The notes under the pieces are model-generated. The model was not told the DNA's origin and did not search any database. It worked only from the letters and a program-made list of their open reading frames with translations. A program made the position numbers and the translations under genes. From positions 39,594-103,593 of the forward strand of contig DASRDZ010000010.1 in NCBI GenBank assembly GCA_035652335.1: a stretch of 64,000 nucleotides of DNA. The letters run 5' to 3'. Position 1 is the stretch's first letter, and every line of letters begins with the position of its first letter. Of this stretch, positions 29,853 through 54,854 are shown piece after piece. The stretch comes from Candidatus Dormiibacterota bacterium (lineage in GTDB: Bacteria; Chloroflexota; Dormibacteria; Aeolococcales; Aeolococcaceae).

Positions 29853-29903
29853 GGGGGGGAATGGTAGCGATCTTTACGATCGTCCGCCAGCGGGAGGCGA
29901 GCC

Positions 29904-36327: not shown

Positions 36328-37983
36328 TCAGAGCCCGGTGACGGCGGGCAGCTCGATCCAGGACGGCGTGGCGCCCCCGTGCAGCACCGTCTGCTGCGCG
36401 GGCTGGAGCGACGTCGCGGTGTTGGCGTCCTCGCCGGTCGAGGGATTGCGGTCGAGGCGTGGGAAGTTCGAGGACGACACCTCGACGCGCAGGCGGTGTC
36501 CGGCGAGGAAGGCCATCGCCGTCGAGCCCACCTCGACGTCGACGCCGGCCGGCTCACCTGGGGTCAGGCGCGCCCGCCGCACCGAGTCCACGACGTTGTA
36601 GGCGCGCCCGTCGGGGTGGACGTCGACCAGCTTCACCGTGACGTCCGCCGAGGGGGCTGACGACGCCACCACGACGTGGGCGCGGACCATGCCCATCACC
36701 GTGAGCGGCTGCTGCAGCGGCTCGGAGGTGTAGACGAGCACGTCGGGACGCTCCTCGACGCTGCGCTGGTCGCATGGTCCCGGCATGGGCAGATGGGGGC
36801 CGCAGCTCCGTCCGCCGCGCGAGGGGACCGGATCGCGCGGGTCGTAGCGGTACGTGTCGCTGCGCTGCTCCGGCGGGTTGGCGGAGGCCAGGCGCCCGTC
36901 GCCGCCCAGGCTGTTGGCGTGGCCGTCGGAGTCGAGGAAGAGCCGCTCCGGCTGCGACGGCGGCGGCCACGTGGCCATGTCGACCCAGCGGTTCTCGCCC
37001 ATCACGAAGATGCGCGCGCCGCTCTCGACCTCCTCGCCGCGCACCGCGCGGGCCAGCCAGCCGAGCATGTCCGCGGCGACGGTGGCGCCGAGGGCCGTGG
37101 CCCCGAAGTCCACCTCCGGCGACATGCGCTGGAAGATGTTGAAGTGCGTCCAGGGGCCGACGACGATGCGCTGCCCGCGCCGGGCGCGCTCGGTGGCGGC
37201 GGTCTGCTGCAGCCCGCTGAAGTTGCGCAGCGAGCCCTCGCAGAAGATGTCGTACCAGCCGGCGACGTGGTACGCGGGCACGGTGATCTCGGCGTGGCGC
37301 CGCTCGACGTCGACGGGTGCCCAGTGGTCCGCGTCCTCGGGGCGCAGCCAGCCGGGCAGCTCGTCGAAGATCCTCTGGATGCGCGGCGATCCCAGCGGCA
37401 GCGCGTACGCGTCCGCGTGGTCGTCGACGATGGCCTGGGCGGCGCTGCGCAGCTCAGGGTCGCTGCGCGGTGAGGTCGCCACGAATCCCGCGCCCCACTG
37501 CTCGGTGAAGCCGAGCTGCATGGCGCCGCCCTCGTAGAGCCAGCCCTCGGTGTAGCGGTTGGCGGTGCACACGGGGGAGATGGCGCGCAGCGCGGGCGGC
37601 GCCGACACCGCGCAGAGCATCTGGGTGGCGCCGACGTAGGAGCCGCCCCACATGGCGACGTCACCCGTGCACCACGGTTGCGCCGCGCACCATTGCACGG
37701 CGTCGTAGCCGTCGTCCACCTCCTGGTGGAAGGGGCGGAAGTCCCCGTCGCTGTCGAAGCGTCCGCGCGCGTCCTGGATCACGACGGCCCAGCCGGCTCG
37801 GGCCATCGAGACGGCGTCGGTGGTGAGCCGCGAGCCCGCCCGCGAATACGGCGTGCGCATCAGCAGCGCGGGACGCGGCGTGCCGTCGTCGAGGCGCACC
37901 ACGTCGGTGGCGAGGCGCACGCCGTCGCGCATCGGCACGCGCTCGTCGTCGACGGCGATCCTCGCCGAGGCCGGCGGGGTCAC
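36328..37983 (-). CDS. CocE/NonD-family alpha/beta hydrolase (X-Pro dipeptidyl-peptidase S15-like)
   Basis: Real start is the GTG at 37983 (VTPPASARIAVDDERVPMRDGVRLATDV...), which overlaps the TGA of GH31 (GTGA). The upstream roughly 440 codons of the track ORF are Arg-rich junk overlapping GH31. Nucleophile elbow WGGSYVG; C-terminal beta-sandwich. Confidence 0.75.
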   Translation of the reverse strand: MTPPASARIAVDDERVPMRDGVRLATDVVRLDDGTPRPALLMRTPYSRAGSRLTTDAVSMARAGWAVVIQDARGRFDSDGDFRPFHQEVDDGYDAVQWCAAQPWCTGDVAMWGGSYVGATQMLCAVSAPPALRAISPVCTANRYTEGWLYEGGAMQLGFTEQWGAGFVATSPRSDPELRSAAQAIVDDHADAYALPLGSPRIQRIFDELPGWLRPEDADHWAPVDVERRHAEITVPAYHVAGWYDIFCEGSLRNFSGLQQTAATERARRGQRIVVGPWTHFNIFQRMSPEVDFGATALGATVAADMLGWLARAVRGEEVESGARIFVMGENRWVDMATWPPPSQPERLFLDSDGHANSLGGDGRLASANPPEQRSDTYRYDPRDPVPSRGGRSCGPHLPMPGPCDQRSVEERPDVLVYTSEPLQQPLTVMGMVRAHVVVASSAPSADVTVKLVDVHPDGRAYNVVDSVRRARLTPGEPAGVDVEVGSTAMAFLAGHRLRVEVSSSNFPRLDRNPSTGEDANTATSLQPAQQTVLHGGATPSWIELPAVTGL

Positions 37984-40004
37984 CACGGCTCGTGCCCTTC
38001 GCGCACCAGCAGCGGGAGGCGATCGAGCGGCACGCCGTCGTGACGCACCCACGCCGGACCCTGGAAGCGCTCGCCGGTGAAGTGGTCCGTCCACGAGCCG
38101 GGCGGCACGTACACGTCGACGCGTCCCCCGGGCTGCAGCACCGGCGCGACGAGCAGGGAGGGGCCGAGGAGGTACTCGGTGTCGACGCCGTGCGCGCCGC
38201 GGTCGCCGGGGAACTCCAGCGCGACGGGGCGCATCACCGGCACGCCGGTGTCCGCGGCCTCCTGCGCGCAGCGGAGGAGGTACGGGCGCAGCCGGGTGCG
38301 CAGCGCGATGAAGTCGCGCGCGATGCGCACCGCGTCGTCGCCGTAGAGCCAGGGCTCGCGGCCGAGGATGCCGTGGAAGCGGCAGTGGCTGCAGAGCAGC
38401 CCGTACTGCATCCAGCGGATGAAGAGCTCCGGCTCCGGCCTCTCGATGCCGAAGCCCTCGTCCTCGGCGCGGTCGAGGTCGCGCACGTAGAAGCCGCCGA
38501 TATCGTTGGCCCAGAAGGCGAAGCCGCTCCAGGCGGCGCTCAGCGCGCCGCGCAGGTTGCCAGCCATGCCGGCCCACGTCGACTGCGAGTCGCCAGGCCA
38601 GTGCGCCGGGTAGCGCTGGCTGCCCGCCGTGCCGGAGCGCGTGTAGAGGAAGGGCGCGCCGGCGCGGTGGGCGGTGATCGAGCCGAGCAGGCCGTAGAGG
38701 TTGTGGACCTCGCGGCCGCTGCGGCCGTCGGCGTACTCGGCGGTGATCGGCGCCAGCTCGCCGTAGTCCAGCTTGAAGGCGTCGACGCCGGCGTCGAGGA
38801 GGCGGCGCATCTCGGTGATCCACCACGCGGCGCCGCCGCCGGTGAAGTCGACGAAGGCGCGCACGGGGAACTGCGTCTCGCGGGCGCGGCCCCTGCCGAC
38901 GAGGTTGTCCGGAACGTAGCCGGCCTCGTCCTCGACGACGTTGGGGTTGACCCACAGGCAGAGCTTCTTCCCCCTGCCGTGCAGCCAGTCCACGAACTCC
39001 TGCATGGGGCCGAAGTCCTTCTCGTTCCAGACGAAGTCGCAGAAGTCGTAGGCGCGGCCCGGACGGTTGGCCAGCCAGAGCGGATCGAGCCCGACCACGT
39101 CGACGGGGATCTCCAGCCTCTCCGCGGTGTCGAGCACCTCCTCGACCTCGGCGCGGCTCGCGTACATGCACTTCGACATCCAGACGCCGAAGCTCCACTC
39201 CGGCGGCACGGGCGCGCGACCGGTCAGCGCGGTGTAGCGCTGCAGCACCTGCTTGGGCTCGCCGAGCAGGACGAAGAGGTCGAGGTGGTGGCTCTCGACG
39301 CACACGCTCGCCGACGCCGTGGAGGTCGCGCCGACGTCGAACACCGCGCGCTCGCCGTGATGCACGAAGACCCCGTAGCCCTCGCTCGACACCACCAGCG
39401 GCACGCTCTTGTAGACGCGGTCGGTGGTGTTGGTCCCGCCCGGCTCGCAGATGAAGTGCGAGAGCCGGCGCCCGACCAGGCTCGGTCCCAGGAAGCGCTC
39501 GCCAAGCCCCCAGAGCTGCTCGCCGGGACGCAGCCGGAAGGTCTCGTACGCCTGCACGCGATCGCCCGTGCGCAGCTCGTCGGCCCAGCCGCCCGGCTCG
39601 TTGACGTTCTCCAGCAGCGAGGTGTCGGTGCGCTCCGTCGCAAAGGGGCCGAAGTCGACGCGATAGGGCTTGCGCCGCAGCACCAGCGCGGTGCCGCCGG
39701 CGTCGATGCGCACCTCGGTCGCCGTCTCCTCGACGTGGAGCGGCAGGCAGCGTGGCGGCGCGGCCAGCATCTCGGTGAGGTGCTCGTCAGGATCGCCGGC
39801 CATCGACCACTGCAGGCGCGCCACCTCCGGGTCGGGGAAGGTGATCCGCCCCTTGACGGGCTTGCCGCCGCGCGTCACCAGGGTGAGGTGGACGCACGCG
39901 GGCTCGGCGCGCAGGCCGGCCAGCTCGTCGATGGGATGGAACGCCCAGGCGCCGCGGTCGAAGATCGGCCGCGCCGTCTCGTAGGTGCCGATGTGCCAGT
40001 CCAC
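37980..40004 (-). CDS. GH31-family alpha-glucosidase/alpha-xylosidase
   Basis: 674 aa, GTG start. GH31 catalytic-region motifs (GVWMSKCMY, KLDYGE, WPGDSQSTW). Its stop overlaps the CocE start. Confidence 0.85.
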   Translation of the reverse strand: MDWHIGTYETARPIFDRGAWAFHPIDELAGLRAEPACVHLTLVTRGGKPVKGRITFPDPEVARLQWSMAGDPDEHLTEMLAAPPRCLPLHVEETATEVRIDAGGTALVLRRKPYRVDFGPFATERTDTSLLENVNEPGGWADELRTGDRVQAYETFRLRPGEQLWGLGERFLGPSLVGRRLSHFICEPGGTNTTDRVYKSVPLVVSSEGYGVFVHHGERAVFDVGATSTASASVCVESHHLDLFVLLGEPKQVLQRYTALTGRAPVPPEWSFGVWMSKCMYASRAEVEEVLDTAERLEIPVDVVGLDPLWLANRPGRAYDFCDFVWNEKDFGPMQEFVDWLHGRGKKLCLWVNPNVVEDEAGYVPDNLVGRGRARETQFPVRAFVDFTGGGAAWWITEMRRLLDAGVDAFKLDYGELAPITAEYADGRSGREVHNLYGLLGSITAHRAGAPFLYTRSGTAGSQRYPAHWPGDSQSTWAGMAGNLRGALSAAWSGFAFWANDIGGFYVRDLDRAEDEGFGIERPEPELFIRWMQYGLLCSHCRFHGILGREPWLYGDDAVRIARDFIALRTRLRPYLLRCAQEAADTGVPVMRPVALEFPGDRGAHGVDTEYLLGPSLLVAPVLQPGGRVDVYVPPGSWTDHFTGERFQGPAWVRHDGVPLDRLPLLVREGHEPW

Positions 40005-40101
40005 CGGGGCTGCATCCTCCCAACCGACCCCCTGCGCCGAATTAGTCTAGAATCATAACGAACCCGGCGGAGGGCGGTCGAAGGAGCGTACCCGGGAGCG
40101 A
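40005..40101. promoter_or_regulatory. Divergent GH31 / GH38 intergenic region with AT-rich box
   Basis: GAATTAGTCTAGAATCATAACGAACC, with TAGAAT and CATAAC hexamers and a central TCTAGA palindrome. Confidence 0.35.
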
Positions 40102-43100
40102 ATGAGCACGTCGGAGGTCCCCACCCGCGCCGGCGCGGGGGAGCGGGTTGTGTGGCGGATCGGCCGGCTCGACGGGGGCGCCGAGCAGTTCGCAGCGGGG
40201 CCGCGTTTCGACGCGGGCTGCGACGAGCTGCGCTTCCGGGTCGGGGTCGACGACGAGAGCAGCGCCTGGCCGTCGTACCAGCCCGGGCCGCTGATGGCCT
40301 GGACCGGCTACCGCTCGAAGCGCGTCGCCGTCGACTTCCATCTCGACGCGCCGCCGTCCACCGCGTGCGAGCTGCGCCTGCGCCTGCTCACCGTCACCGG
40401 GCCGCCGCCGGACGTCGACGTCTCCGTCAACGGCCGCCGCGGGCGCTGGTTCCTCGACCCGGTGCGGCGCGACCGCACCGACCTGTCCAGCCCCTCGCAC
40501 ATCGGCGGCTGGGACCTGCTGCGCGTGCCGGTCGACTCGGCGTGGCTGCAGCGCGGAGAGAACCGCATCGTCGTCGCCACCGTGCAGGACGACGCCGTCG
40601 ATCCCGCCGAGCTGGGGCCGATGCATCCCGAGTACCCGTACTTCTGGGGCAGCGTGCTGCGCCACGGCGGCGTCGAGCTGGTGGAGACGGGCGAGGCCAT
40701 GCCGGCGCGGTCCGTGCGCGTGTCACCGACACCGCTCTTCGTGCGGCGCGACGGAGCGTTCTGCGAGCTGGTCGACGTCGTCGTCACCGCGCCCGCTGGA
40801 GTCGCGGCCGGGGCGGTGTCACTCACGGTGGCGGGAGCGGCGCCGGTGTCCGCCGCACTCGATCCCGCCGGACGCGACACCGGCCAGGTGCGCGTGCGCC
40901 TCGCCGTGCCCGACCTCGGGGACACGCCATGCGATGCCGAGATCAGCGTCGCGCTCGACGGCGCCCCGATCCGCGAGCAGATCACCCTGCGCCCCTGCCG
41001 CAAATGGACGGTGCACCTGCTGCCCCACGTCCACCTCGACGTCGGCTACACCGACGTGCAGGCCAAGGTCTTCGAGGTGCACAGCCGCAACCTCGACCGC
41101 GTCCTCTCCATCCTCGGCGACGTTCCCGAGTACCGCTACTCCGTCGACGGCGGCTTCGTCCTCGAGCAGTTCGCCCGGTCGCGCAGCGCCGAGTCGCGCG
41201 AGTCCGTCCTCGCCGCGCTGCGCGACGGGTCGCTGAGCGTCAACGCCTTCATGGCGCTGTTCCTCACCGGCATCGCCTCGCTGGAGGAGTGCTACCGCGC
41301 CGGCTACGGAACCGCTGCGCTCCGCCGTGAGCACGGCGTGCCCGTCGACTACGCGAACCTCACCGACGTCCCGTCGTACAGCTCCGCGATGCCGTCGGTG
41401 CTCCGCGCGATGGGCGTCGACGCCTTCGCCGGCATCCAGAACCACGGCCGCGCCGCCACCGAGGACGGCGACGTGCTCCATCTGGTCTCGCCGTTCCTCT
41501 GGGAGGGACCTGACGGCGCGCAGGTGCTCAGCTTCTTCGCCGACTGCTACGCGCAGCTCCGCTACATCTGCGGCCATCCCACCACGGTGACGGGCAGCGC
41601 GCTGAGCCTCACCCGCCTGCTCGGCCGCTACGAGCGCGACGACTACCTGCCCCACGACTTCCCCCTGGTGGGCATCTACAGCGACAACGAGGACCTCGGC
41701 GACGGCGAGGCCGGCTTCGTGGCGCGCTGGAACGCCGCCTACGAGTACCCGCGGCTGCGCTACAGCACCCTGCGCGACTACTTCGCCGCGGTGCGTCCGC
41801 TGCGCGACCGCCTTCCCGTGGTGCGCGGCGACGGGGGCAGCTTCTGGGAGGACGGCGTCGGCTCCTCGGCCTCGCTGACGGCGGCGTACCGCCGCGCCCA
41901 GGCGCTGCTGCCCGTGGCCGAGGCGTGCAGCGCATTGGTGCAGACCGTCGACCCCTCGCTGCGCGCGGCCGTCGACGATCTCGACCGCGCCTGGCAGGGC
42001 CTGCTGATCGGATGCGAGCACACCTGGACCTGGATGCACGCGCACGAGCATCCGCACGGCGAGCAGACCGACGACCAGCTCGGCTGGAAGCGCGCCCAGG
42101 TCGACACGGCGCTGCGCGTCGCCGTCGACGAGACGCGCCGCGCCATGAGCCAGCTCGGCGAGCTGGTGCAGACGGACGGTCCCTCGCTGCTGCTCTTCAA
42201 CGCCCTGGGATGGCGGCGCGACGGCGTCGTCGAGGTGGAGCTTCCCCGGCGGCTGCACGTGATCGGCGAGGATGGCGCGCCGGTGCCGTCCGAGGTGACG
42301 TGGTGCGACACCGGCCTCCAGCGGGTGCGCCTGCGCAGCACCGTCCCCGGCCTCGGCTACCGCCGCCTCACTCTCGCCGAGCAGCCGGATCCCGACGGCG
42401 TCTCCACGGCGGGGCTGGCGCCACTCGACGGCGACCTGGTCGAGACGCGACGCCATCGCCTGCGCGTCGACCGCGGCACCGGACGCATCGTCTCGCTCTG
42501 GTCCACGACGCTGCAGCGCGAGCTGCTCGACTGCGAGGCCACCGGCGTCGCCCTCGCCGAGGTGCTCTACGTGCGCAGCGAGAACGCCGCGCGCGACAGC
42601 ATTCACGAGTTCTCGCGGCACCTTCCTGCGCCGTCGCTCACCGTCACGCCCGCCGCGATGCGCGTTGCCGGCGTGCGCCGCACGCCCTGGGGCGCGGTGG
42701 TCGCGCTCCGCGGTGAGGCGCCGAGCCTGCCGCGGGTCGAGGTGGACGTCGAGCTGCACGACGACGAGGAGCGCGTCGACGTCACCGTGCGCCTCGACAA
42801 GGAGGCGGTGCACGCCACCGAATCGGTCTACGTCGCCTTCCCCTTCGCCGTCCCGGACGCGACGCTGCGCTACGACCGCCAGCAGGGCTGGGTCGATCCC
42901 GCCGCCGACCACGCGCCGGGCGCCTGCAACGAGTGGTTCACCACGCAGCACGCGGTGGGCCTCGACGGCGGCGGCGCCGCGGTGACGTGGTGCTCGGCGG
43001 ACGCGCCGCTCTTCACCGTGGGCGACGTGGTGCGCGGTCGCTGGCCGCGCCATCACCAGCCCGGATCCTCGACCCTGCTCTCCTGGGTGATGAACAACCA

Positions 43101-43560
43101 CTGGTGGACCAACTACGCACCCGCGCAGTCCGGTGAGGTGACGCTGCGCTACTCCTTCACCGCCGCGCAGCGCTGGGACGCCGCCGCGGCCGCGCGTTTC
43201 GGGCGCGAGGCGCGCACGCCGCTCGCCGTCTCGACGGTCACCTGGCTCGACAAGATGGACACCGGCCCGCGCCGGCTCAGCCAGGCCGCGGCGTCGCTCC
43301 TCGACGTCGAGGCGCCGCCCAATCTCACCGTCACCGTCGCCCAGGCGCGCGCCGGGGACGGCCTGCTGCTGCGCCTCCAGGAGACCGCCGGCATCGCAGC
43401 GTCCGCCTCCGTCCGCCACCCCTTCGCGACACGCACCACCCCGCGCGTCGAGCGCTGCACCGCGCTGGAGGACGGCCTCGCCCCGCTCGACGTCGTCGAC
43501 GGCCGGGTGCGCGTCGAGGTCGCGCCGTACGAGATCGTCAGCATGAGGATGTCCCGATGA
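40102..43560 (+). CDS. GH38-like alpha-mannosidase family protein with an extra roughly 290-aa N-terminal domain
   Basis: 1152 aa. The GH38 N-terminal metal-site region is recognisable (VHLLPHVHLDVGYTD, like HSHxDxGW). The stop overlaps the sulfatase ATG (ATGA). Confidence 0.7.
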   Translation: MSTSEVPTRAGAGERVVWRIGRLDGGAEQFAAGPRFDAGCDELRFRVGVDDESSAWPSYQPGPLMAWTGYRSKRVAVDFHLDAPPSTACELRLRLLTVTGPPPDVDVSVNGRRGRWFLDPVRRDRTDLSSPSHIGGWDLLRVPVDSAWLQRGENRIVVATVQDDAVDPAELGPMHPEYPYFWGSVLRHGGVELVETGEAMPARSVRVSPTPLFVRRDGAFCELVDVVVTAPAGVAAGAVSLTVAGAAPVSAALDPAGRDTGQVRVRLAVPDLGDTPCDAEISVALDGAPIREQITLRPCRKWTVHLLPHVHLDVGYTDVQAKVFEVHSRNLDRVLSILGDVPEYRYSVDGGFVLEQFARSRSAESRESVLAALRDGSLSVNAFMALFLTGIASLEECYRAGYGTAALRREHGVPVDYANLTDVPSYSSAMPSVLRAMGVDAFAGIQNHGRAATEDGDVLHLVSPFLWEGPDGAQVLSFFADCYAQLRYICGHPTTVTGSALSLTRLLGRYERDDYLPHDFPLVGIYSDNEDLGDGEAGFVARWNAAYEYPRLRYSTLRDYFAAVRPLRDRLPVVRGDGGSFWEDGVGSSASLTAAYRRAQALLPVAEACSALVQTVDPSLRAAVDDLDRAWQGLLIGCEHTWTWMHAHEHPHGEQTDDQLGWKRAQVDTALRVAVDETRRAMSQLGELVQTDGPSLLLFNALGWRRDGVVEVELPRRLHVIGEDGAPVPSEVTWCDTGLQRVRLRSTVPGLGYRRLTLAEQPDPDGVSTAGLAPLDGDLVETRRHRLRVDRGTGRIVSLWSTTLQRELLDCEATGVALAEVLYVRSENAARDSIHEFSRHLPAPSLTVTPAAMRVAGVRRTPWGAVVALRGEAPSLPRVEVDVELHDDEERVDVTVRLDKEAVHATESVYVAFPFAVPDATLRYDRQQGWVDPAADHAPGACNEWFTTQHAVGLDGGGAAVTWCSADAPLFTVGDVVRGRWPRHHQPGSSTLLSWVMNNHWWTNYAPAQSGEVTLRYSFTAAQRWDAAAAARFGREARTPLAVSTVTWLDKMDTGPRRLSQAAASLLDVEAPPNLTVTVAQARAGDGLLLRLQETAGIAASASVRHPFATRTTPRVERCTALEDGLAPLDVVDGRVRVEVAPYEIVSMRMSR

Positions 43561-45014
43561 GCCGCACCAACCGTCCGCCCAACATCGTCCTGGTGCTCCT
43601 CGACCAGCTGCGCGCCGACGTCTGCGGCACCTACGGCAGCGCCATCTGCCGCACGCCGCACCTCGACCGCATCGCCGCCCAGGGGATCCGCTTCGACCGC
43701 GCCTACACCCCGATCGGCATCTGCAGCCCGGCGCGCGCCTCGATGCTGAGCGGCACGTACCCGCACCGCCACGGTGTGCTCAACAACGTGCACGGGCCCG
43801 ATGCGTTGCAGGTCGACCTCCGCCCGGGAACGCCGGTCTACCCCGCGCTGCTGCGCGACGCGGGCTACGCCACCTCGTACACCGGCAAGTGGCACGTCGA
43901 CATCGAGGACGGCCCGGCCAGCAAGGGCTTCACCCATGTCGGGGCGTGCGACGACTACATGCCCGCGCTCGCCGAGCAGCGCCGGCGGCTTGGCCTGCCG
44001 CACACCGATCCCATCGCCTTCGATCGCAGCACGACGTACCCGCCGCTGTCCGCGCGCGCCACGCGCACGGTGCCCGGCTTCCCGCTGGAGGGTCGCGAGA
44101 CGCAGCCCGTCGAGGGCACGCCGCAGGGCCTGTTCCTGGAGAACGCCCTCGACGCCATGGAGGCGATGCGCCGCGGGGACGCGCCGTTCCTGCTGGTGCT
44201 CTCCTTCCTCGGGCCGCACTGGCCCTACTCCGTCCCCGAGCCGTGGTGGTCGATGTACGACCCGGCCGCGATCCCGCCCTGGCCCAACTGGGAGGACGAC
44301 TTCACCGGCAAGCCCGGCGCCAACCGTCGCGGCCTGCAGCACTTCGGCGTCGAGGGCTGGACCTGGCAGGACTGGGCCCCCACCGTCGCCGCCTACCTCG
44401 GCTCGGTGACGATGCACGACGAGCTGATCGGCCGCCTCGTCGCCGCGCTCGACGCCGGCGGCGCCGCCGAGGACACGCTGCTCATCGTCACCGCCGACCA
44501 CGGCGACCTCTGCGGCAGCCACCGCCAGTTCAACAAGGGCCCGCTGATGTACGAGGAGGTCTACCGCATCCCCCTGGTGGCGCGCTGGCCCGGCGTCATC
44601 GCGCCGCAGTCGGCGAGCGACGCCTACGCCAGCTCACTCGACCTCTTCGCCACCATGCTCGACGCCGCCGGCGTGGCATTGCCCGACGCGCCGCTCGACT
44701 CCCGCAGCCTGCTCCCGCTGTTGCGCGGTGAGACCCCGCAGGGCTGGCGCGACTCCTGGGTCTCCGAGTTCCACGGGGACGAGTTCGGTCTGTATTCGCA
44801 GCGCATGCTGGTGCATGGGCGCCACAAGCTCGTCTACAACCCGCACGACGTCGACGAGCTCTACGACCTGGTCGCCGATCCCCACGAGCTGCGCAACCTC
44901 AGCGCCGAGCCGTCCCTGGCCGCGCTGCGCGACGACCTCGAGTCGCGCCTCGCCCAGTGGATGGACGCCACCGGCGACCCGCTGGGCAAGTACGCCTACA
45001 ACCTCCTCGGCTGA
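43557..45014 (+). CDS. Cys-type sulfatase (formylglycine-dependent, C-x-P-x-R)
   Basis: Signature LLDQLRADVCGTYGS ... CSPARASMLSGTYPHRHG, with the C-x-P-x-R formylglycine motif and the metal-binding D/D/N context. Coupled to GH38. Confidence 0.9.
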   Translation: MSRTNRPPNIVLVLLDQLRADVCGTYGSAICRTPHLDRIAAQGIRFDRAYTPIGICSPARASMLSGTYPHRHGVLNNVHGPDALQVDLRPGTPVYPALLRDAGYATSYTGKWHVDIEDGPASKGFTHVGACDDYMPALAEQRRRLGLPHTDPIAFDRSTTYPPLSARATRTVPGFPLEGRETQPVEGTPQGLFLENALDAMEAMRRGDAPFLLVLSFLGPHWPYSVPEPWWSMYDPAAIPPWPNWEDDFTGKPGANRRGLQHFGVEGWTWQDWAPTVAAYLGSVTMHDELIGRLVAALDAGGAAEDTLLIVTADHGDLCGSHRQFNKGPLMYEEVYRIPLVARWPGVIAPQSASDAYASSLDLFATMLDAAGVALPDAPLDSRSLLPLLRGETPQGWRDSWVSEFHGDEFGLYSQRMLVHGRHKLVYNPHDVDELYDLVADPHELRNLSAEPSLAALRDDLESRLAQWMDATGDPLGKYAYNLLG

Positions 45015-46170: not shown

Positions 46171-46194
46171 CCCGCGACGGGGGTGACACACACA

Positions 46195-47940
46195 ATGCCG
46201 TCGCGGGTGGGCAGCATCAGGGGCAGGTGGCGCCTGCGCGGTCTCGGCGTTCTCGCCGGTGCGGTGCTCGCGATCCTGCTCGGCGTGCAGGGCGCGGTGA
46301 CGGCGCTCGCCGACTGCGGCAACCTCCACGCGGCGGCGATCCAGGGCAGCTGGCAGATCCGCGTCACCTTCGACGGGTTCACCGGGTCGGCCGCGCCCGG
46401 GGTCGCGCGCCAGCCGGGGAACGTCGCCGTCGACGACGTCACCTTCCAGCCGGGCTGCGCGTCGAACGGCACCTGCGGCGTGCAGATGCAGGGCACGCAG
46501 GGATCGCTGAGCTTCTTCAGCAACACCAGCGGCCTGGAGGGCCCGGATCCCGACCACCCGCTGGTCGAGCAGGCCGACGGCACCTGGACCACCCAGTTCC
46601 GGCCGGGTGGCATCGGCGGCCGCAACCTGCCCCCCTGCTCGCCGCCGCCGCTGACGCGCACCCTCGTCCTCGCGGTGCAGCAGGCGGTCCCCTCGTCGTC
46701 GGCGAGCACGGGATGGAACGCCGTGGTGATGACCGGCACCGAGACGATCGTCTCCTACTGGACGTGCAACGGCAGCACCGGCGTGCCCTCGTCGGTCGAG
46801 AACTACACGCTGCTGGCGGTCCCCGCCGGCGCGCCGTTCCCCGCGTCGTCGCGGCTCGCCTGCGGCACGACGCTGAGCGCACCGGCCGCGCCCGCGGTGA
46901 CCGTCACGGGGTCGGGCGCCGTGGCCCAGTCGTCGTTCAGCAGCGCGCTGGCGACGCCGTCACAGAGCTTCGGCTCGGCGGGCACCACCATCGTCAACCT
47001 GGTGGTGACCATCGGGCTGGTGCTGTTCATCACCTTCCCCGCCCAGCTCTTCAACCGCACGCTGGAGGAGAACTACGACGACATCCGCGACATCCTCAGC
47101 CGGCGCTTCGGCTGGGTGCGGCGGATGCGCCGCGAGGTGGCCGCGGAGTCCACCCGCGAGACGCGGCTCGGCGTCTTCGCGGCCGTGGTGCTGGGCGGCG
47201 CGCTGCTGGGGTCGCTCAACGACCCGGGCTTCGGCTTCAACGCCAGCTCGGTGCTCACCTATCTCGGCGTGGTCGCCTCGATGCTGACCGGGCTGACGGC
47301 GGGCACCATGGCGGCGAAGCTCTACCGCCGCGCGCGCGGCGAGGACGCCAGCGGCAGGCTGCACGCACTGCCCGCCGGGCTGCTCGTCGCCGGCGCCTGC
47401 GTGCTGCTCTCGCGCTCGACGCACTTCACCCCTGGCTACCTGTACGGCGTGATCTTCGGCGTCGCCTTCACCGCCAAGCTGAGCCGCTCGCGCGAGGGGG
47501 CCGGCATCGTCGTGGGCACGGCGACGACGCTGGCGCTGGCGGTGCTGGCCTGGATCCTCTGGGTGCCGGTGCACGACCGCAGCGGCGGAGTTTCTGCCAA
47601 CGCCGGCCTCATCCTGGTGGCCGACTTCCTCGCCCCGCTGGTGGTCGGCGGTTTCGTGGGCAGCGTCATCGGGCTGTTCCCGCTGCGCTTCCTCTCCGGG
47701 GGCACGCTCTTCGGCTGGGATCGGCGCGTCTGGGCGGCGACCTTCGGCGTGGCGCTCTTCGGCCTGGTCCAGGTGCTGCTCCACCCCGGCGCCTCTCCGG
47801 CGCACAGCGGCAACGCGCCGATGGTCACCGCCATCGTGCTGTTCCTCTGCTTCGGCCTTCTCTCGCTGGGCTTCAACGCGTACTTCGAGCGGCGCAAGAA
47901 GCGGCGGCAGGCGGCCGCGGTCACAGCGGGTCACGCGTAG
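46195..47940 (+). CDS. Membrane protein: signal peptide, Cys-containing extracytoplasmic domain of about 270 aa, and a C-terminal polytopic (about 6 TM) domain; function unknown
   Basis: ATG at 46195 (or GTG at 46183) is downstream of a TTGACA-17-TACACT promoter. Signal: MPSRVGSIRGRWRLRGLGVLAGAVLAILLG. Hydrophobic helices run from about aa 280 onwards. The overlapping Arg-rich ORF 46227..48293 is rejected. Confidence 0.55.
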   Translation: MPSRVGSIRGRWRLRGLGVLAGAVLAILLGVQGAVTALADCGNLHAAAIQGSWQIRVTFDGFTGSAAPGVARQPGNVAVDDVTFQPGCASNGTCGVQMQGTQGSLSFFSNTSGLEGPDPDHPLVEQADGTWTTQFRPGGIGGRNLPPCSPPPLTRTLVLAVQQAVPSSSASTGWNAVVMTGTETIVSYWTCNGSTGVPSSVENYTLLAVPAGAPFPASSRLACGTTLSAPAAPAVTVTGSGAVAQSSFSSALATPSQSFGSAGTTIVNLVVTIGLVLFITFPAQLFNRTLEENYDDIRDILSRRFGWVRRMRREVAAESTRETRLGVFAAVVLGGALLGSLNDPGFGFNASSVLTYLGVVASMLTGLTAGTMAAKLYRRARGEDASGRLHALPAGLLVAGACVLLSRSTHFTPGYLYGVIFGVAFTAKLSRSREGAGIVVGTATTLALAVLAWILWVPVHDRSGGVSANAGLILVADFLAPLVVGGFVGSVIGLFPLRFLSGGTLFGWDRRVWAATFGVALFGLVQVLLHPGASPAHSGNAPMVTAIVLFLCFGLLSLGFNAYFERRKKRRQAAAVTAGHA

Positions 47941-48706: not shown

Positions 48707-48976
48707 CGCTGCTCGCATGGCGCCGTGGGCCCTGTGCCCACGCGAGGGCAAACCCGGTCGTGCCCTGAGCCTCTTGACATCGGCGCGGCAGGGCGTGAGA
48801 CTTCACGGTGGCTCTGATGCGTGCGACGTTCCCGCCGCATCGGACGGCTAGGGGCCTCGCGGACGTGTGAGGTCGTGACCGGGTCGGGTGCCCACCGGAC
48901 GGAGACGTCAGGCAGGCACCCGGCGCTGTTTAACGGGCCGCAAGGCCGTCCGTCGATCCTCTGACCGATCGGTACG

Positions 48977-51448
48977 GTGGCGGACACAAGCCGTTCGCCG
49001 GACCGGTTGCACGTCGCCCGGTGCTACGGTGATGTGGCCATCCGCATCGCCTTCACCTCGTCGAGCATCCCGCGTCGCTGCGGCATCGCCACGTTCACGG
49101 CGGACCTGATGGCCGCCATCAGGACCGCGGCGCCGGACACCCGGTGCAGCGTCGCGGCCATCGACGAGGCCAACGTGGTGCGGCCCTACGGACCTGAGGT
49201 GCGCTGGCGCATCCGGCAGGGCGAGCCCGAGAGCTACCGCACGGCGGCGCTCGCCATCAACGCGTCCAACGCCGACGTCGTCAACGTGCAGCACGAGTTC
49301 GGCCTCTACGGCACGTGGCGCGAGCCCGGCTACCGTGACGGTCGCTGGGTGGAGACCGGCTACGAGGACCACCTTCGCGAGTTCCTCGACACCATCCGAA
49401 AGCCGGTGATCACCACCCTGCACACCGTGCTTCCCGACCCGCCACGATCGGTGCGCGACGCGGTCCGCTCCATCGCCGAGCGCAGCGACGAGGTCGTCGT
49501 CATGGCGAGCACCGCCATCGACGTCCTCGCCGCCGACTACGGGGTCACCCATGCGCCGGTGGTCATCCCTCACGGCATGCCGGCGATCGAGCCGCACGGT
49601 CGCGTGCGACTCAAGGCCAAGCTCGGCGTCGAGGGACGCACCATCATCTCGACGTTCGGCCTGGTCGATCCTCGCAAGGGGTTGGAGTACATGGTCGAGG
49701 CGATGCCCGCGGTGGTGACGCGCCATCCGCGAGCGCTGTACCTGATCGCCGGGCAGACCCATCCCGAGCTGCTCAGGGCGCAGGGCGAGGCGTATCGCAA
49801 CGGCCTGGTCGACGACGTGCGCCGGCTCGGCATGCAGAGCCACGTCGCCTTCATCGACCAGTACATGTCGCAGCGCGACATCGTCGAGCTCCTGCTGGCC
49901 AGCGACGTGTACGTGACGCCGTACCTCGACCCCAACCAGATCACCAGCGGGACTCTCTCGTACGCGCTGGGGGCCGGCAAGGCGGTGGTGTCGACGCCCT
50001 ACCTGCACGCGGCCGAGGCGCTCGCGGACGGCCGCGGCCTGCTCGTCCCGTTCCGCGACGGCGATGCACTGGCGATCGCCGTGCTGTCGATCCTCGACGA
50101 TCCCCGACGCAAGGAGACCCTGGAGCGCGGCGCCTACGCGTACGCGAAGGATTCGGCGTGGCCGCGCGCCGCGGCGCGATTCGTCGAGCTGGCGCACGCC
50201 GTCGACAGTGCGCGGCGGGTGCGACATGCCGAGCGGCGCGCCGCTTCCCGCCACGCGGAGGCCGGCCTGGGGCAGCGCGTTGCGGGCAACCCGATCATCA
50301 CGCCCGCCGACGTCCCACCCTCGCGCCCCGGGCTCGAGGTCGTCTCGGTGTTCAACGCGGCCGCGGCGCGGGTGGACGGCGAGGTCATCCTGCTGCTGCG
50401 CGTCGGTGAGCGCCCGCGCACCGACGTCGATCCCCCCGAGGGCTCGATGACGTTCGACCTGAACGGTCCCGAGCCCCGCCTCTCGCCGCTGGCCCCAGGC
50501 ATCCCTCGTGACCAGCTCGTCGGCGTCGCCTTCCTGGACACGACGCCGCAGCCGCCGCAGGTCGTCGACGTGTACCTGCCAAGGGACATGCCGGGGCTCG
50601 ACCTCAGCGACTCACGGACCATCCGCTACCGCGGGTCGACGGGCGGCTTCACGGCCGCGGCCGACGACGTCACCGACCTCCTCACCCAGATGTCCCACCT
50701 GCGCGTGGCGCGCAGCGCCGACGGCGAGCACTTCCACGTCGACGACGCTCCCGCGCTCGCACCGGTGGACCGTCTCGAGGAGTACGGCTGCGAGGATCCG
50801 CGCGCCACCTGGCTCGACGGTGCGTGGGAGATCACCTACGTCTCGGTCAGCCGGCTCGGCATCACCACCAGCCGCGCCACCACCACCGACTTCCGCGCGT
50901 TCGAGCGCAGGGGGGTGATGTTCCTGCCCGACCACAAGGACGTGGTGCTCTTCCCCGAGCGCATCGGTGGGCGGTACGTGGCGCTCACGCGCCCGATGCC
51001 GCAATCGTTCGGGCGCGTGCTCGGCATCTGGATCGCCTTCTCCGACGACCTGCAGCAGTGGGGCGATCACCGGCCGCTGGCGCTGCCGCGCTGGGGAACG
51101 TGGGACGAGCTGCGCACCGGGGCGGGCACCGTTCCCTTCCGCGTCGCCGAGGGCTGGCTGGAGCTCTACCACGGCGTCGACCGCGATCAGCGCTACGCGA
51201 TGGGTGCGCTGCTCCTCGACGCGGACGATCCCACGCGCGTGCTTGCCCGATCGCGCCGCCCCGTCCTGGTGCCCAGCGAGCCCTTCGAGCGGGTGGGCGT
51301 CTTCGGCAACGTCGTCTTCTCCTGCGGGCACGTGCCCCTCGACGACGACGGTGCGCGCATCCGCCTCTACTACGGCGCCGCGGACACCTGCCTGGGAGCC
51401 GCCGACTTCGCGGTCCGCGACATCGTGGACGACCTCGAGCCATGCTGA
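48977..51448 (+). CDS. Bifunctional fusion: N-terminal GT4-family glycosyltransferase (about aa 1-410) plus C-terminal GH130-family glycoside phosphorylase/hydrolase (about aa 440-823)
   Basis: One uninterrupted 823-codon frame. The GT4 part carries the GT-B EX7E region (GRTIISTFGLVDPRKG ... YVTPY ... E). The GH130 part has GNPIITPADVPP...SVFNAAAARVDGEVILLLRVGERP, GCEDPRATW, YHGVDRD and YYGAADTC motifs. Several start codons are possible (GTG 48977 or GTG 49034). Confidence 0.8.
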   Translation: MADTSRSPDRLHVARCYGDVAIRIAFTSSSIPRRCGIATFTADLMAAIRTAAPDTRCSVAAIDEANVVRPYGPEVRWRIRQGEPESYRTAALAINASNADVVNVQHEFGLYGTWREPGYRDGRWVETGYEDHLREFLDTIRKPVITTLHTVLPDPPRSVRDAVRSIAERSDEVVVMASTAIDVLAADYGVTHAPVVIPHGMPAIEPHGRVRLKAKLGVEGRTIISTFGLVDPRKGLEYMVEAMPAVVTRHPRALYLIAGQTHPELLRAQGEAYRNGLVDDVRRLGMQSHVAFIDQYMSQRDIVELLLASDVYVTPYLDPNQITSGTLSYALGAGKAVVSTPYLHAAEALADGRGLLVPFRDGDALAIAVLSILDDPRRKETLERGAYAYAKDSAWPRAAARFVELAHAVDSARRVRHAERRAASRHAEAGLGQRVAGNPIITPADVPPSRPGLEVVSVFNAAAARVDGEVILLLRVGERPRTDVDPPEGSMTFDLNGPEPRLSPLAPGIPRDQLVGVAFLDTTPQPPQVVDVYLPRDMPGLDLSDSRTIRYRGSTGGFTAAADDVTDLLTQMSHLRVARSADGEHFHVDDAPALAPVDRLEEYGCEDPRATWLDGAWEITYVSVSRLGITTSRATTTDFRAFERRGVMFLPDHKDVVLFPERIGGRYVALTRPMPQSFGRVLGIWIAFSDDLQQWGDHRPLALPRWGTWDELRTGAGTVPFRVAEGWLELYHGVDRDQRYAMGALLLDADDPTRVLARSRRPVLVPSEPFERVGVFGNVVFSCGHVPLDDDGARIRLYYGAADTCLGAADFAVRDIVDDLEPC

Positions 51449-52539
51449 GGCAGCTCGCCCGCCTCACCCGCGCCGTGCCGGCGGCAGGGCCCGCCGCCGT
51501 CGCACTCGCGGTGTACGCCGATGCCGACGATGCGCTGGTCCCCGCGCGAGAATCGGGAGTCGAAGGCGTCGCCTGCGTCGACGACGCCGCCCGCGCGATC
51601 CTGCTGCTCTGCGCTGTGTGGGAGGACACCCGGCTGCCCTGGGTGCGCACGTGGTGCGAGGGGCTCCTCGACTTCCTGGCCTGGATGCAGAACCCGGACG
51701 GGCAGTGGGTGAACTTCGTCAGCGACTGGGACGGGACGCGCAACCGCGGAGGCAGCAGCTCCGTCGCCGGCGGCGCCTTCTGGCAGGCGCGTGCGCTCCA
51801 GGCCGCGGCGCGCGCGGCCATCGTCCTGGATGACGCGCGCGCCGATGCGATGCTGGACCGGGGCATCGTCTGGATGCGCGCGCCCGCGACGCCGGACGTG
51901 CGCGCCCTGCACGTCATGACCGCGGTGGACCTGTTGCGAGCGGGCCGGTTCCCGCGGTTGCGCGACCACCTCACCGGTTGGATCGACCAGATGCTGACCT
52001 GCACGCGTGACGGGATGCTGATGAACGCGCCGAACGAGACCGGCTCTCCCCACCTGTGGGGGCACGTCGAGGAGGCTGCGCTGGCCGACGGCGGCGCGCT
52101 GCTCGGCCGCGACGGCGTGGTCGACGTCGCCCGGCGCAGTGGAGAGCTGCTCTTCCGCGACGTCATCGGCGCCGGCTTCGACCTGCCTCACGTGCAACCG
52201 TACGACGTGGCCTCGGCGATCCTGGTCATGGACCGCCTCCATGCCGTCACCGGCGCGGCGGAGTACGCCGCGCTCGCCCAGACCGCCCGCCGGTGGTTCG
52301 ACGGGCGCAACCCGGCTCGCCGTCCGGTCTACGACACGAGCAGGGGGCGTGTCGCCGACGGCATCGACCAGGGACGGCTCAGCCGCAACTCCGGGGCCGA
52401 GTCCAACATCGTCGGCGCGCACGCGCTCCTGGATCGCACCGTGGAGCAGGCGCGGCGGCTCGGCGCCAATGCGGCGCTTCCCTGGCGAGATGCCGCGATG
52501 CCGCGCCGGGCCGTCGACGCCGCGCGGCCGGAGGCCTGA
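51442..52539 (+). CDS. Hypothetical protein, possible (alpha/alpha)6-barrel glycosidase/epimerase-like fold, translationally coupled to the GT4-GH130 gene
   Basis: ATG at 51442 overlaps the upstream stop (ATGCTGA). 365 aa and non-repetitive (ACVDDAARAILLLCAVWEDTRLPWVRTWCEGLLDFLAWMQNPDGQW). The track ORF 50824..52539 upstream of 51442 is a frame artefact overlapping the fusion gene. Confidence 0.5.
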   Translation: MLRQLARLTRAVPAAGPAAVALAVYADADDALVPARESGVEGVACVDDAARAILLLCAVWEDTRLPWVRTWCEGLLDFLAWMQNPDGQWVNFVSDWDGTRNRGGSSSVAGGAFWQARALQAAARAAIVLDDARADAMLDRGIVWMRAPATPDVRALHVMTAVDLLRAGRFPRLRDHLTGWIDQMLTCTRDGMLMNAPNETGSPHLWGHVEEAALADGGALLGRDGVVDVARRSGELLFRDVIGAGFDLPHVQPYDVASAILVMDRLHAVTGAAEYAALAQTARRWFDGRNPARRPVYDTSRGRVADGIDQGRLSRNSGAESNIVGAHALLDRTVEQARRLGANAALPWRDAAMPRRAVDAARPEA

Positions 52540-53458: not shown

Positions 53459-53513
53459 GCGCGAGCCTCTATTGGATTCTGGCCGGTGATGCGGTGCGCC
53501 GTGCCGGCGGCTG

Positions 53514-53600
53514 CGGAGCGAGAGGGATTCGAACCCCCGAGGGCTTGTCGGCCCTTGTGGTTTTCAAGACCACTCCGATCAACCACTCCGGCATCGCTCC
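53514..53600 (-). tRNA. tRNA-Ser (anticodon TGA), class II with long variable arm
   Basis: Minus-strand read: GGAGCGA-TG-CCGGAGTGGTTGATCGG-A-GTGGT-CTTGAAA-ACCAC-A-AGGGCCGACAAGCCCTC-GGGGGTTCGAATCCCTC-TCGCTCC-G. A 7-bp acceptor, the GTTCGAATC T-loop, anticodon loop CT-TGA-AA and a long variable arm identify it as Ser. CCA is not encoded. Confidence 0.85.
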
Positions 53601-53641
53601 GCCGCGCAGTGTACCTCCGCCGCGACGGGCCGGCGGGGCGC

Positions 53642-54682
53642 TCAGTTCGGCGCCGGCGCGCCGACATCGCCGTCCTGCGGCCGGAAGTGGACCAGCGCGA
53701 GCGCCGCCGGCACGGCGATCGATCCCAGCCCGCGCGAGACGGCGACGTCGCGCATCTCCCAGCGCGGCGCGAACTTGTCCTTGAACCGCGCCAGGGAGCG
53801 GTAGTCGTACCCGAACGTGCCGTGGCGGAACAGCCAGTGCCGCAGCGAGCGCGCCAGCCGTCCGTCGGGCGCGTCGCCGTCATGCGTCGAGTCGCGGAAG
53901 GGCGCGACTCCGAGCGACGCCACGCGCAGGCCGCGGGCGCGCGCCGCGTCGAGCGCCGCCGCGATGCACAGGTCCATCGCCCCCGCGGGTGCGACGGGTG
54001 AGCGCCGGAACATGTCGAGCGCGATGCCGTGCCCACCGAGGCGCAGCCACGTGGTGAACGCCTGCGCGCGCCCGTCCGCACCGCGGACGACGCTGACCGT
54101 CGCGTCCGCGTCGAGGATCTCCCCGAAGCGCCCCACCGAGAATCCCAGCTCGCGCCAGGGCCGCCGCGCCAGCCAGGCGTCCGACACCCCGCGCAGCTCC
54201 TCCCACGTCGCGCCGTCGACGTCGTCCGCCCGCAGCACCGACGCCGACATCCCGGCGCGGCGGGCCCGCGACAGCTCGTGCCGCAGATTGGCGCGCCGCG
54301 GCGACGACGGGCAGAACGACTCCAGGTCGACCACCGCCTCCTCGCCGAATGCGTACACCCGCAATCCTGCGGCACGGTACGCCGGTCGCAGCGACGGATG
54401 CGTCTGCATGAAGCACACCGGCAGGCGCGCCGTGCGGCAGATGGCGACGAACTCGTCGACGGCGCGCCGCTGCAGCTCGGGCGCCACCAGCGGATCGCCC
54501 GCCGCGACGACCACCCCCGCGGCGACCCGGAACCCGACGACGGCACCGCAGTGCAGCCGCAGCTGCTGCTTGTCCCGCGAGCCTGCCAGGCAGCTCAGCT
54601 GCGATGCGGCGTGGCGCCGGCGGGCCGCCTCGACCTCGGCTGCGTCCGCCCGCAGCAGCTCCAGGGCTGCCGTCCTTCCCAT
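53642..54682 (-). CDS. Standalone MprF C-terminal-domain-like protein (DUF2156 / LPG-synthase C-domain; aminoacyl-tRNA-dependent aminoacyl transferase, VlmA-like), no membrane flippase domain
   Basis: Real start is the ATG at 54682 (MGRTAALELLRADAAEV...), 346 aa. The roughly 800 upstream codons of the track ORF 53642..57076 are an Arg-rich artefact on the opposite strand to the TPR gene. It resembles the soluble C-terminal synthase domain of MprF/LysX (...YAFGEEAVVDL...FSVGRFGE...DYRSLARFKDKFAPRWEMRDVAV). Confidence 0.75.
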   Translation of the reverse strand: MGRTAALELLRADAAEVEAARRRHAASQLSCLAGSRDKQQLRLHCGAVVGFRVAAGVVVAAGDPLVAPELQRRAVDEFVAICRTARLPVCFMQTHPSLRPAYRAAGLRVYAFGEEAVVDLESFCPSSPRRANLRHELSRARRAGMSASVLRADDVDGATWEELRGVSDAWLARRPWRELGFSVGRFGEILDADATVSVVRGADGRAQAFTTWLRLGGHGIALDMFRRSPVAPAGAMDLCIAAALDAARARGLRVASLGVAPFRDSTHDGDAPDGRLARSLRHWLFRHGTFGYDYRSLARFKDKFAPRWEMRDVAVSRGLGSIAVPAALALVHFRPQDGDVGAPAPN

Positions 54683-54740
54683 GGCGCCGAAGCCTACCCT
54701 CCCGGGACCGCCGAGGGCGGTCGCGGGACGGTGCCCTGGG

Positions 54741-54746
54741 TATACT
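54741..54746 (+). promoter_or_regulatory. TATACT -10 hexamer of the tRNA-Ser(GCT) promoter
   Basis: GGGTATACTCGAC; the hexamer ends 13 nt before tRNA position +1. Confidence 0.35.
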
Positions 54747-54759
54747 CGACACCCTCCGC

Positions 54760-54854
54760 GGGGAGGTGGCTGAGTGGCCGAAAGCGCCCGCCTGCTAAGC
54801 GGGTGAGGGGTATTAAACGCTCCTCCGAGGGTTCGAATCCCTCCCTTCCCGCCA
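54760..54854 (+). tRNA. tRNA-Ser (anticodon GCT), class II, CCA encoded
   Basis: GGGGAGG-TG-GCTGAGTGGCCGAAAGCGC-CCGCC-TGCTAAG-GCGGG-(long variable arm)-CGAGGGTTCGAATCCCTC-CCTTCCC-G-CCA. The acceptor has 6 Watson-Crick pairs plus one G-T. A TATACT -10 hexamer lies at 54741-54746, 13 nt upstream. Confidence 0.85.

Follow-up and report, generated by a model that had tools for sequence, protein, structure and literature searches.

What might a cell gain from joining a glycosyltransferase and a glycoside phosphorylase in one polypeptide? The question is raised by a 64,000-nt stretch of contig DASRDZ010000010.1 from a Candidatus Dormiibacterota soil bacterium (hereafter the window, G+C ~73%; all coordinates are positions within it), in which a GT4 glycosyltransferase domain and a GH130 domain share a single reading frame whose last codons overlap the start of a gene for a hypothetical protein. 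On gene content and order, this trio is one arrangement of a widespread module made up of a GT4 clade with a QX7Y motif, a barrel protein, and a GH130 or GH94 phosphorylase. The reading we prefer, to which we assign a probability of roughly 40%, is that the product of this two-gene, three-domain cytoplasmic unit, which would both build it and turn it over, would be a short mannoside of mixed linkage and not a long polymer. The features on which the argument rests are listed here, with residue numbers referring to the 823-amino acid (aa) frame.

48707..49033, plus strand: upstream intergenic region, presumed to hold the promoter and 5' leader for the two genes
48977..51448, plus strand: fusion reading frame (GT4, linker, GH130), 823 aa from the first GTG, single and uninterrupted
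49034..50191, plus strand: GT4 (GT-B fold) glycosyltransferase domain, residues 20–405
49937..49963, plus strand: Q321-ITSGTLS-Y329, in place of the GT4 EX7E motif (from alignment to PimA)
50192..50272, plus strand: interdomain linker, Arg/Ala-rich, about 28 residues (406–432)
50273..51448, plus strand: GH130 five-bladed beta-propeller, GH130_4-like, residues 433–823 plus stop codon
50417..50689, plus strand: extended GH130 lid, residues 481–571, ~91 aa, containing R547 (Uhgb_MS R88)
50792..50797, plus strand: E606-D607 of the GCEDPR motif, beta-1,2 specificity Glu and presumed catalytic Asp (Uhgb_MS E136/D137)
51442..51448, plus strand: start/stop overlap ATGCTGA, with the downstream ATG at 51442 and the fusion's TGA at 51446–51448
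51442..52539, plus strand: (alpha/alpha)6-barrel protein, 365 aa, GenBank HZS13377.1 'hypothetical protein'

The fusion frame and the three domains of the unit

Does one frame encode both a GT4 enzyme and a complete GH130 domain, as the original prediction held? Pfam, homologues, and fold matches all bear this out. The four GH130 motifs that had been named were found (NPIITP at residue 438, GCEDPR at 604, YHGVD at 731, and YYGAAD at 798), as was the Arg/Ala linker of roughly 30 residues, at residues 406–432 (AHAVDSARRVRHAERRAASRHAEAGLG). Among 40 homologues the linker is near-constant in length (31–37 residues across positions 400–436) and poorly conserved in sequence. In the full-length AlphaFold2 (AF2) model, linker residues 417–427 have a per-residue confidence (pLDDT) below 50—that is, they are disordered—and the predicted template modeling score (pTM) is 0.49, with the orientation of GT4 relative to GH130 undefined. 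Because residues 1–19 show no conservation in the same alignment and the GenBank product (HZS13376.1, 'glycosyltransferase', from a Candidatus Dormibacteraeota genome) is 804 aa long with its gene start at 49034, the true start of the fusion is probably the GTG at 49034, giving an 804-aa protein. Neither the fusion nor the barrel protein contains a membrane-like hydrophobic segment.

The next gene does begin within the fusion's last codons: ATGCTGA is present at 51442–51448, as had been claimed. The same geometry, a downstream start overlapping the GH130 stop, recurs in ~60 related loci and suggests that the fusion and the barrel gene are translationally coupled; it is on this conserved overlap that the predicted coupling rests. 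Scans of the presumed promoter and leader region (48707..49033) found no sigma-70-like site, terminator, or Rfam match, and promoter, terminator, and Rfam scans around the two-gene unit as a whole returned nothing, the two tRNA-Ser genes that they detected lying elsewhere.

Could the frame instead be an assembly or frameshift artefact joining two adjacent genes? A few relatives do carry both halves as separate genes. However, in a search of 5.8 billion proteins, every one of the best 120 homologues (120/120), from independent assemblies and sources, was a fusion (648–873 aa, both Pfam families present). A genome scan limited to one genome per species gave 73 loci, in genomes labelled Dormibacterota, Limnocylindria/Chloroflexota, and Acidimicrobiales, most of which match residues ~20–823 continuously; ~60 are fused. 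Together with the constant linker length, these observations led us to reject an artefact, the chance of which we regard as negligible.

The separate genes are seen at seven loci, which split the GT4 and GH130 halves in two ways. Four have the order GH130, barrel, GT4 on one strand (L049, L050, L060, L066), and in three the GH130-barrel pair is divergent from GT4 (L043, L044, L045), with a sigma-factor gene between the pair and GT4 in L043 and L044. Each gene has its own start and stop wherever the open reading frames were read (L043, L044, L049, L060). Because their gene order differs, the split forms are not the same locus with a missed stop; they are natural forms, with no sign of sequencing error. 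The possibility, raised at the outset, that orthologues would prove to be two genes therefore applies to a minority of loci, permuted or divergent in order, and fails for the closest homologues. In two Acidimicrobiaceae loci (L036, 8001–11864; L038, 8001–13548) the fusion has a shortened GH130 domain or has lost it outright, the barrel gene being kept in L038. A different GH130 gene, of 43% identity, is found 2–3 kb downstream, and in L038 another glycosyltransferase gene precedes it; the phosphorylase partner seems to have been replaced.

Two further observations concern the set of loci. Dormibacterota-type fusions, 64–87% identical, occur in nine records (L005, L016, L018, L032, L043, L045, L052, L057, L066) labelled Acidiferrales, Angelobacter, Saccharimonadales, Sulfotelmatobacter, Verrucomicrobiia, Baltobacterales, Nitrosotalea, or Terracidiphilus; these labels are probably unreliable, through mis-binning or mis-assignment. 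In two Chloroflexia-labelled genomes the module is followed, after ~6 kb, by a further GH130 paralogue (L012, 16096–16896; L020, 16025–16825) that is only distantly related to the fused domain (32% identity).

Is the GH130 half equipped to act as a phosphorylase? It matches Pfam PF04041 (Glyco_hydro_130) at residues 574–818 (E 1.7e-45, 155.8 bits against a cut-off of 26), and the AF2 model is all-beta from residue 453 on, with 35 GH130 chains among its Foldseek matches (E 7e-36 to 3e-16). Among proteins of solved structure the GH130 half is closest to Lin0857 (E 5e-80, 44% identity), Uhgb_MS, and Teth514_1788; target-normalised template modeling (TM) scores of this domain, taken from the full-length model, against Lin0857 and Uhgb_MS are 0.84–0.90. 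Lin0857, from Listeria innocua, and Uhgb_MS are GH130_4 beta-1,2-mannobiose phosphorylases with weak GDP-mannose transferase activity (PDB 5b0p, 9eqq; PMC12814180). When the residue roles described in that study are transferred to the fusion through a HMMER alignment, Uhgb_MS R47, R88, E136, D137, K184, R202, and R242 correspond to R475, R547, E606, D607, K654, R672, and R713. We infer that D137 is the catalytic Asp because Y103 of Uhgb_MP is stated to be equivalent to Uhgb_MS E136. The first six of these positions are invariant among the 40 homologues, and R713 is conserved in at least 90% of them. The catalytic Asp (D607) and the basic phosphate-binding residues (K654, R672, R713), whose loss had been considered, are thus all in place, as are the GH130_4 beta-1,2 specificity pair (R475/E606) and the lid Arg (R547).

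In all these respects, and in fold, the domain resembles Lin0857 and Uhgb_MS, but those enzymes are single-domain proteins with a lid ~40 residues shorter and a different L2-loop. By alignment gaps, the lid of the fusion measures ~91 aa against 48–54 aa in Uhgb_MS and Lin0857; it is 90–91 aa long in all 40 homologues and modeled by AF2 as ordered beta strands. The GH130_4-specific lid restricts Lin0857 and Uhgb_MS to products of 2–3 sugars (PMC12814180). The L2-loop residues tied to GDP-mannose binding differ (Q676/S677/V681 as compared with P206/E207/N211), at positions that vary and do not predict function (PMC12814180). The NCBIfam equivalog NF050092 (BtaManbiosPhlase) scores 360.8 bits, below its cut-off of 550, which marks the domain as related and not as an equivalog. 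Judged by its aligned residues, the GH130 half is fully equipped for catalysis as a GH130_4 beta-1,2-mannoside phosphorylase, and its predicted reaction is Man-beta1,2-Man-R + Pi <-> alpha-Man-1-P + Man-R.

The GT4 half is as conserved among the 40 homologues as the GH130 half. Pfam places GT4-type domains at residues 141–386, with Glycos_transf_1 (PF00534) and Glyco_trans_1_4 (PF13692) at 214–386, above their curated cut-offs (54 and 56.8 bits against 26.4 and 27). Sequence similarity to characterised enzymes is weak: PimA is closest (1e-10), followed by PimB', MshA, and others down to 1e-6. In structure the half is an ordinary GT-B protein, for which Foldseek returns GlgM, MshA, PimB', PimA, and BshA at E about 1e-14 to 1e-12, none of them standing out. 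The EX7E motif of the family is absent; in the alignment to PimA, QX7Y occupies its position, with Q321 invariant and Y329 nearly so in 40 fusions. How far does this substitution extend? A HMMER search of 1.84 billion representative proteins with the GT4 half (E ≤ 1e-30) gave 1,232 clusters, of which the best 149 were analysed. In these, Q is found in 145/149 and Y in 136/149. The position of PimA R196 (L229) is Leu in 142/149 clusters, and the equivalent of K202 (K234) is kept in 148/149; H262 of the GxTHP motif is invariant and a candidate substitute for the missing Arg.

Seven motifs are near-invariant across the 149 clusters despite their having only ~40% identity to the query: PPRxCGIATFT, QHE[FY]G, PHG, TFGLxxxxKG, GxTHP, Q-ITSGTL-x-Y, and STPYxxAxE. 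By this pattern, the GT4 half is part of a distinct, strongly constrained GT4 clade; we found no characterised member of it. Within the 149 clusters, 74 are stand-alone GT4 proteins, 65 are GT4-barrel fusions, nine carry other unassigned N- or C-terminal extensions, and one is the GT4-GH130 fusion. Four clade members (P0403, 1122 aa; P0423, 1514 aa; P0483, 1127 aa; P0474, 831 aa) are extended at the N- or C-terminus by large regions outside all three module profiles and so show further architectures.

What is the downstream protein? An (alpha/alpha)6-like fold had been proposed for it, and both AF2 and Foldseek agree: a model built from a 38-sequence alignment (pLDDT 89, pTM 0.89) has its helices in pairs, as is usual for (alpha/alpha)6 barrels. 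The protein matches nothing in Pfam or NCBIfam, 38 family members scanned gave chance-level hits only, and its ~1,300 homologues are all annotated 'hypothetical'. The best Foldseek match is YPO2471 of Yersinia pestis (PDB 7tem; E 3.6e-14, TM 0.82), which is also the sole significant profile match of the family in PDB (E 1.2e-21) and shares the motifs DD..ARA, NF, RAL, WF..N, DG, and NSGAES. YPO2471 is the only solved homologue of the barrel and is annotated as exported; because it is itself uncharacterised, it gives no functional information. Residues D47-D48, R51, N91, R117, R289-N290, D298, D306, and E320 are common to the barrel, YPO2471, and the barrel domains of fused homologues, and a PHLWGHxQE motif (H208-x-x-E211) is specific to this barrel clade.

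The next fold matches, at TM 0.60–0.69, are N-acylglucosamine/cellobiose 2-epimerases, mannose isomerase, and YihS; GH9, GH76, and GH127 barrels match at similar significance. Cellobiose 2-epimerases pair with GH130 enzymes in mannan catabolism. We rejected membership of the N-acylglucosamine/cellobiose 2-epimerase (AGE) superfamily: no member of the barrel family has an epimerase Pfam match, profile searches of PDB found no epimerase, and, when the barrel is compared with the positions of the catalytic His residues of epimerases, it has no invariant C-terminal His, the invariant residue there being E320.

One module in several arrangements

How consistently do the three parts occur together? 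GT4, GH130, and barrel are found side by side in ~65 of the 73 loci, and no other neighbour is conserved in these 73. Nor is a transporter conserved beside the module, either there or in 11 loci with GT4-barrel fusions. The nearest GT4 relatives outside the fusion family, from marine Actinomycetota (L071 and L072, 41% identity), are 760 aa long and helical over their C-terminal 360 residues, and the gene that follows each encodes a GH94 phosphorylase. Is this helical domain the barrel? Because comparison of the barrel family with the single L071 sequence aligned only 79 residues, a profile-profile run was required; hhalign then recovered homology between the C-terminal domain of the GT4-barrel fusions and the barrel of the window with a probability of 99.2% (E 8e-20, 274 columns).

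If the three parts belong together, a phosphorylase should lie beside GT4-barrel fusions in general. This prediction held in all 11 loci checked, within two genes of the fusion. The partner is GH94 in four (L071, L072, L078, L080) and GH130 in seven (L076, L077, L079, L081, L082, L083, and one JGI contig). The GH94 partners are in Actinomycetota, that of L078 being closest to cellobiose phosphorylase; the GH130 of L076 is closest to TM1225 (GH130_2-like) and to beta-1,4-mannooligosaccharide phosphorylases. Larger operons in Acidobacteriota, Desulfobacterota, and others add a GH5-like protein, ManC, PMM, sometimes Usp (two operons contain Usp genes), and a second GT4 that is either joined to a mannose-6-phosphate-isomerase-type cupin or encoded beside one. 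The parts are thus found in three independent arrangements—a barrel beside a GT4-GH130 fusion, a phosphorylase beside a GT4-barrel fusion, and three separate genes—and we regard them as tied together because fusion and gene order have linked them in each of these ways.

Both domain families of the fusion are known, and the sequences are already in databases under generic names; what is new is the link between this GT4 clade, the barrel family, and glycoside phosphorylases. Literature searches on GT4-GH130 fusions, mannosylglucosylglycerate with GH130, Teth514_1785/1786, and YPO2471 returned no study of the architecture. In a 2020 survey, >99% of predicted GH130 phosphorylases were single-domain, and the family is generally read as catabolic (PMC7660257). 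Multimodular GH130-GT81 and GH130-GH130 proteins were recorded in CAZy in 2018, GT4-GH130 not being among the six such entries (PMC7660257); GH130-GT81 is likewise a rare joining of GH130 to a glycosyltransferase, but the partner family differs. Here a GH130_4-type domain shares one polypeptide with a glycosyltransferase, an arrangement conserved in three phyla, and related operons hold genes for GDP-mannose supply. Two uncharacterised families are also linked: a GT4 clade of >1,200 clusters bearing QX7Y and a barrel family whose only solved structure is 7tem.

What the module may make

What could such a module do? In the reading we prefer, the GT4 domain would attach a hexose to an acceptor in alpha linkage, probably mannose with GDP-mannose as the donor; the GH130 domain would add or remove beta-1,2-mannose on the same molecule, by way of alpha-Man-1-P and phosphate; and the barrel protein would trim, hydrolyse, or epimerise the product or the acceptor. 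Fusion and start/stop overlap would hold the parts close together and in a fixed ratio, and the product would be a small oligosaccharide or glycoside. A short product is suggested because the lid is retained and enlarged, a cytoplasmic one because the module comes with no transporters and no signal peptides, and mannose chemistry because ManC and PMM are found in relatives' operons. The candidate roles offered in the original prediction (remodelling, two-step transglycosylation, and compatible-solute or methylmannose-polysaccharide-type metabolism) are compatible with these observations. Its idea of avoiding a futile cycle does not apply to a single bond, since the linkages formed by a retaining GT4 are alpha and those on which GH130 acts are beta. 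What the retaining GT4 joins, a beta-specific inverting phosphorylase cannot cleave at the same bond; therefore the two halves should meet either on one molecule with both alpha and beta linkages or through alpha-hexose-1-phosphate.

Several observations weigh against this reading. Use of a nucleotide-sugar donor is not assured, because the GT4 half lacks both EX7E glutamates and the Arg equivalent to PimA R196. No ManC or PMM gene lies beside the module in the Dormibacterota loci. The phosphorylase partner varies from lineage to lineage, and what the modules have in common may be hexose-1-phosphate chemistry, not one particular mannoside. Finally, the AF2 model, which leaves the orientation of the two domains undefined (pTM 0.49), lends no structural support to channelling.

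Might the module serve catabolic salvage instead? Imported beta-1,2-mannooligosaccharides would be phosphorolysed by GH130 to alpha-Man-1-P, a ManC encoded elsewhere would convert this to GDP-mannose, and GT4 would alpha-mannosylate a cell component, with the barrel as an accessory hydrolase. Just such a pathway has been proposed for Thermoanaerobacter sp. X-514, whose cluster holds GH5, two GH130 enzymes, a Man-1-P guanylyltransferase, GT4, and hypothetical proteins (PMC4264767); the larger operons of relatives hold a similar set (GH5-like, GH130, ManC, PMM, GT4), and the window has GH38, GH31, and sulfatase genes 5–11 kb upstream. Those glycosidases, however, are not conserved with the module, no transporter is conserved beside it in the 73 loci or the 11 GT4-barrel loci, and fusing the first and last enzymes of the pathway while omitting the middle one (ManC) has no obvious benefit. 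The Thermoanaerobacter likeness, moreover, is one of gene content. On balance we consider salvage possible, at rather longer odds than turnover of a short mannoside.

A further alternative dispenses with nucleotide sugars. The GT4 clade would use the alpha-hexose-1-phosphate released by the phosphorylase, either as donor, as in the retaining GT4 trehalose phosphorylase, or as acceptor, in the way that GlgM does with Glc-1-P; overall, a beta-linked disaccharide would become an alpha-linked product with no nucleotide sugar spent. This would fit the replacement of EX7E by QX7Y and of the PimA R196 equivalent by Leu throughout the clade, as well as the fact that the GH130 and GH94 partners have no metabolite in common except alpha-hexose-1-phosphate. 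A direct GT4-GH130 fusion would also make most sense if the product of one domain were the substrate of the other. The GT4 family already contains one natural phosphorylase (PMC10913872). GlgM, whose acceptor is Glc-1-P, is the best structural match of the GT4 half, but by a small margin over other GT4 enzymes, and its ranking is marginal (TM 0.63–0.66, as compared with 0.71–0.75 for PimA). Bacterial GT5 glycogen synthases also lack the second Glu and yet use ADP-glucose, which makes the loss of the motif less than decisive. ManC in several of the larger operons, too, points to a need for GDP-mannose, and in the AF2 model there is no fixed contact between the domains. We therefore think this alternative unlikely. 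If it were true, the module would take beta-linked disaccharides and make from them an alpha-linked glycoside that serves as a stress protectant or a reserve, as a bacterial counterpart of the Leishmania mannogen cycle, and GH130 phosphorylases would have a biosynthetic role. Less probable still is that the GT4 half is non-catalytic—a scaffold, sugar sensor, or oligomerisation module—leaving GH130 and the barrel as the only enzymes. Loss of the canonical glutamates and of one phosphate-binding Arg would be in keeping with this, but the replacement and the other motifs of the active-site region are near-invariant in 149 clusters at ~40% identity, which argues for a constrained active site, and the GT4 half is no less conserved than the GH130 half.

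Do characterised systems help to place a module that may make and turn over a short mannoside? The Thermoanaerobacter cluster (Teth514_1785-1796; PMC4264767) is closest in content to the larger operons, sharing GH130 phosphorylases, GT4, Man-1-P guanylyltransferase, GH5, and hypothetical proteins, but all its genes are separate, its GH130_6 enzymes lack the extended lid, and an ATP-binding cassette (ABC) transporter is present. Its GT4/ManC part (Teth514_1785-1787), which resembles the larger operons in gene content, is induced by ethanol (PMC3751872). This induction and the Usp genes of the larger operons give weak hints that the module may have a role in stress.

In Leishmania, mannogen enzymes of family GT108 synthesise and phosphorolyse beta-1,2-mannosides in the cytoplasm from GDP-mannose and Man-1-P (PMC10913872). 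Their active site is GH130-like, but they belong to another family, lack partners of the GT4 and barrel kinds, and produce a longer oligomer as a reserve, unlike the short products expected here because of the lid. The fusion also recalls Cgs (GT84-GH94), in which a glycosyltransferase and an inverting glycoside phosphorylase share one polypeptide. The two domains of Cgs share one target, a beta-1,2-glucan, in an enzyme that is bound to the membrane. In the fusion, by contrast, a retaining GT4 and a beta-mannoside phosphorylase have no common bond, and the protein appears soluble. A cytoplasmic GT4 mannosyltransferase is found together with an (alpha/alpha)6-barrel enzyme in the mycobacterial methylmannose polysaccharide system, where ManT (GT4) is accompanied by MmpH, a hydrolase that recycles the product into primers (PMC9883506). 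That system has methyltransferases and no phosphorylase, and is not orthologous to the module. Membership of the methylmannose polysaccharide pathway was set aside, as neither ManT (7QSG) nor MmpH (7QSJ) was among the sequence or fold matches. Should the product be a compatible solute or reserve sugar, the module would bear on the persistence of uncultured Dormibacterota in poor soils; the enzymes might also serve beta-mannoside synthesis.

Other genes of the window

Which other genes surround the two-gene unit? Those noted are listed in order of position.

27273–28961, minus strand: 562-aa protein matching the MGH1/GH63 (mannosylglycerate-hydrolase-like) and trehalase Pfam models
37980–40004, minus strand: GH31 gene
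40102–43560: GH38-like alpha-mannosidase, 1152 aa, with an N-terminal PL4-domain-III/CBM-like region
43557–45014: sulfatase, its start overlapping the GH38 stop
46183–47940: 585-aa membrane-like protein without a Pfam match
53642–54700, minus strand: stand-alone phosphatidylglycerol lysyltransferase C-terminal domain gene
within 53513–54854: two tRNA-Ser genes (anticodons TGA and GCT) flanking the lysyltransferase gene

The carbohydrate genes 4–11 kb upstream of the fusion (37980–45014) are not conserved beside the module in other loci. The 562-aa GH63-like gene is adjoined by genes for an aldo-keto reductase and a ROK-family regulator (27273–31160), and its product could be a compatible-solute hydrolase in the same genome. 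Because no neighbour is conserved in the 73 loci, we left the GH38, GH31, sulfatase, and GH63-like genes outside the system. The gene for the 585-aa protein lies between a PhyH-type dioxygenase gene and the nitroreductase-family gene that immediately precedes the fusion. The lysyltransferase gene at 53642–54700 appears to be without the membrane flippase domain of MprF-type proteins.

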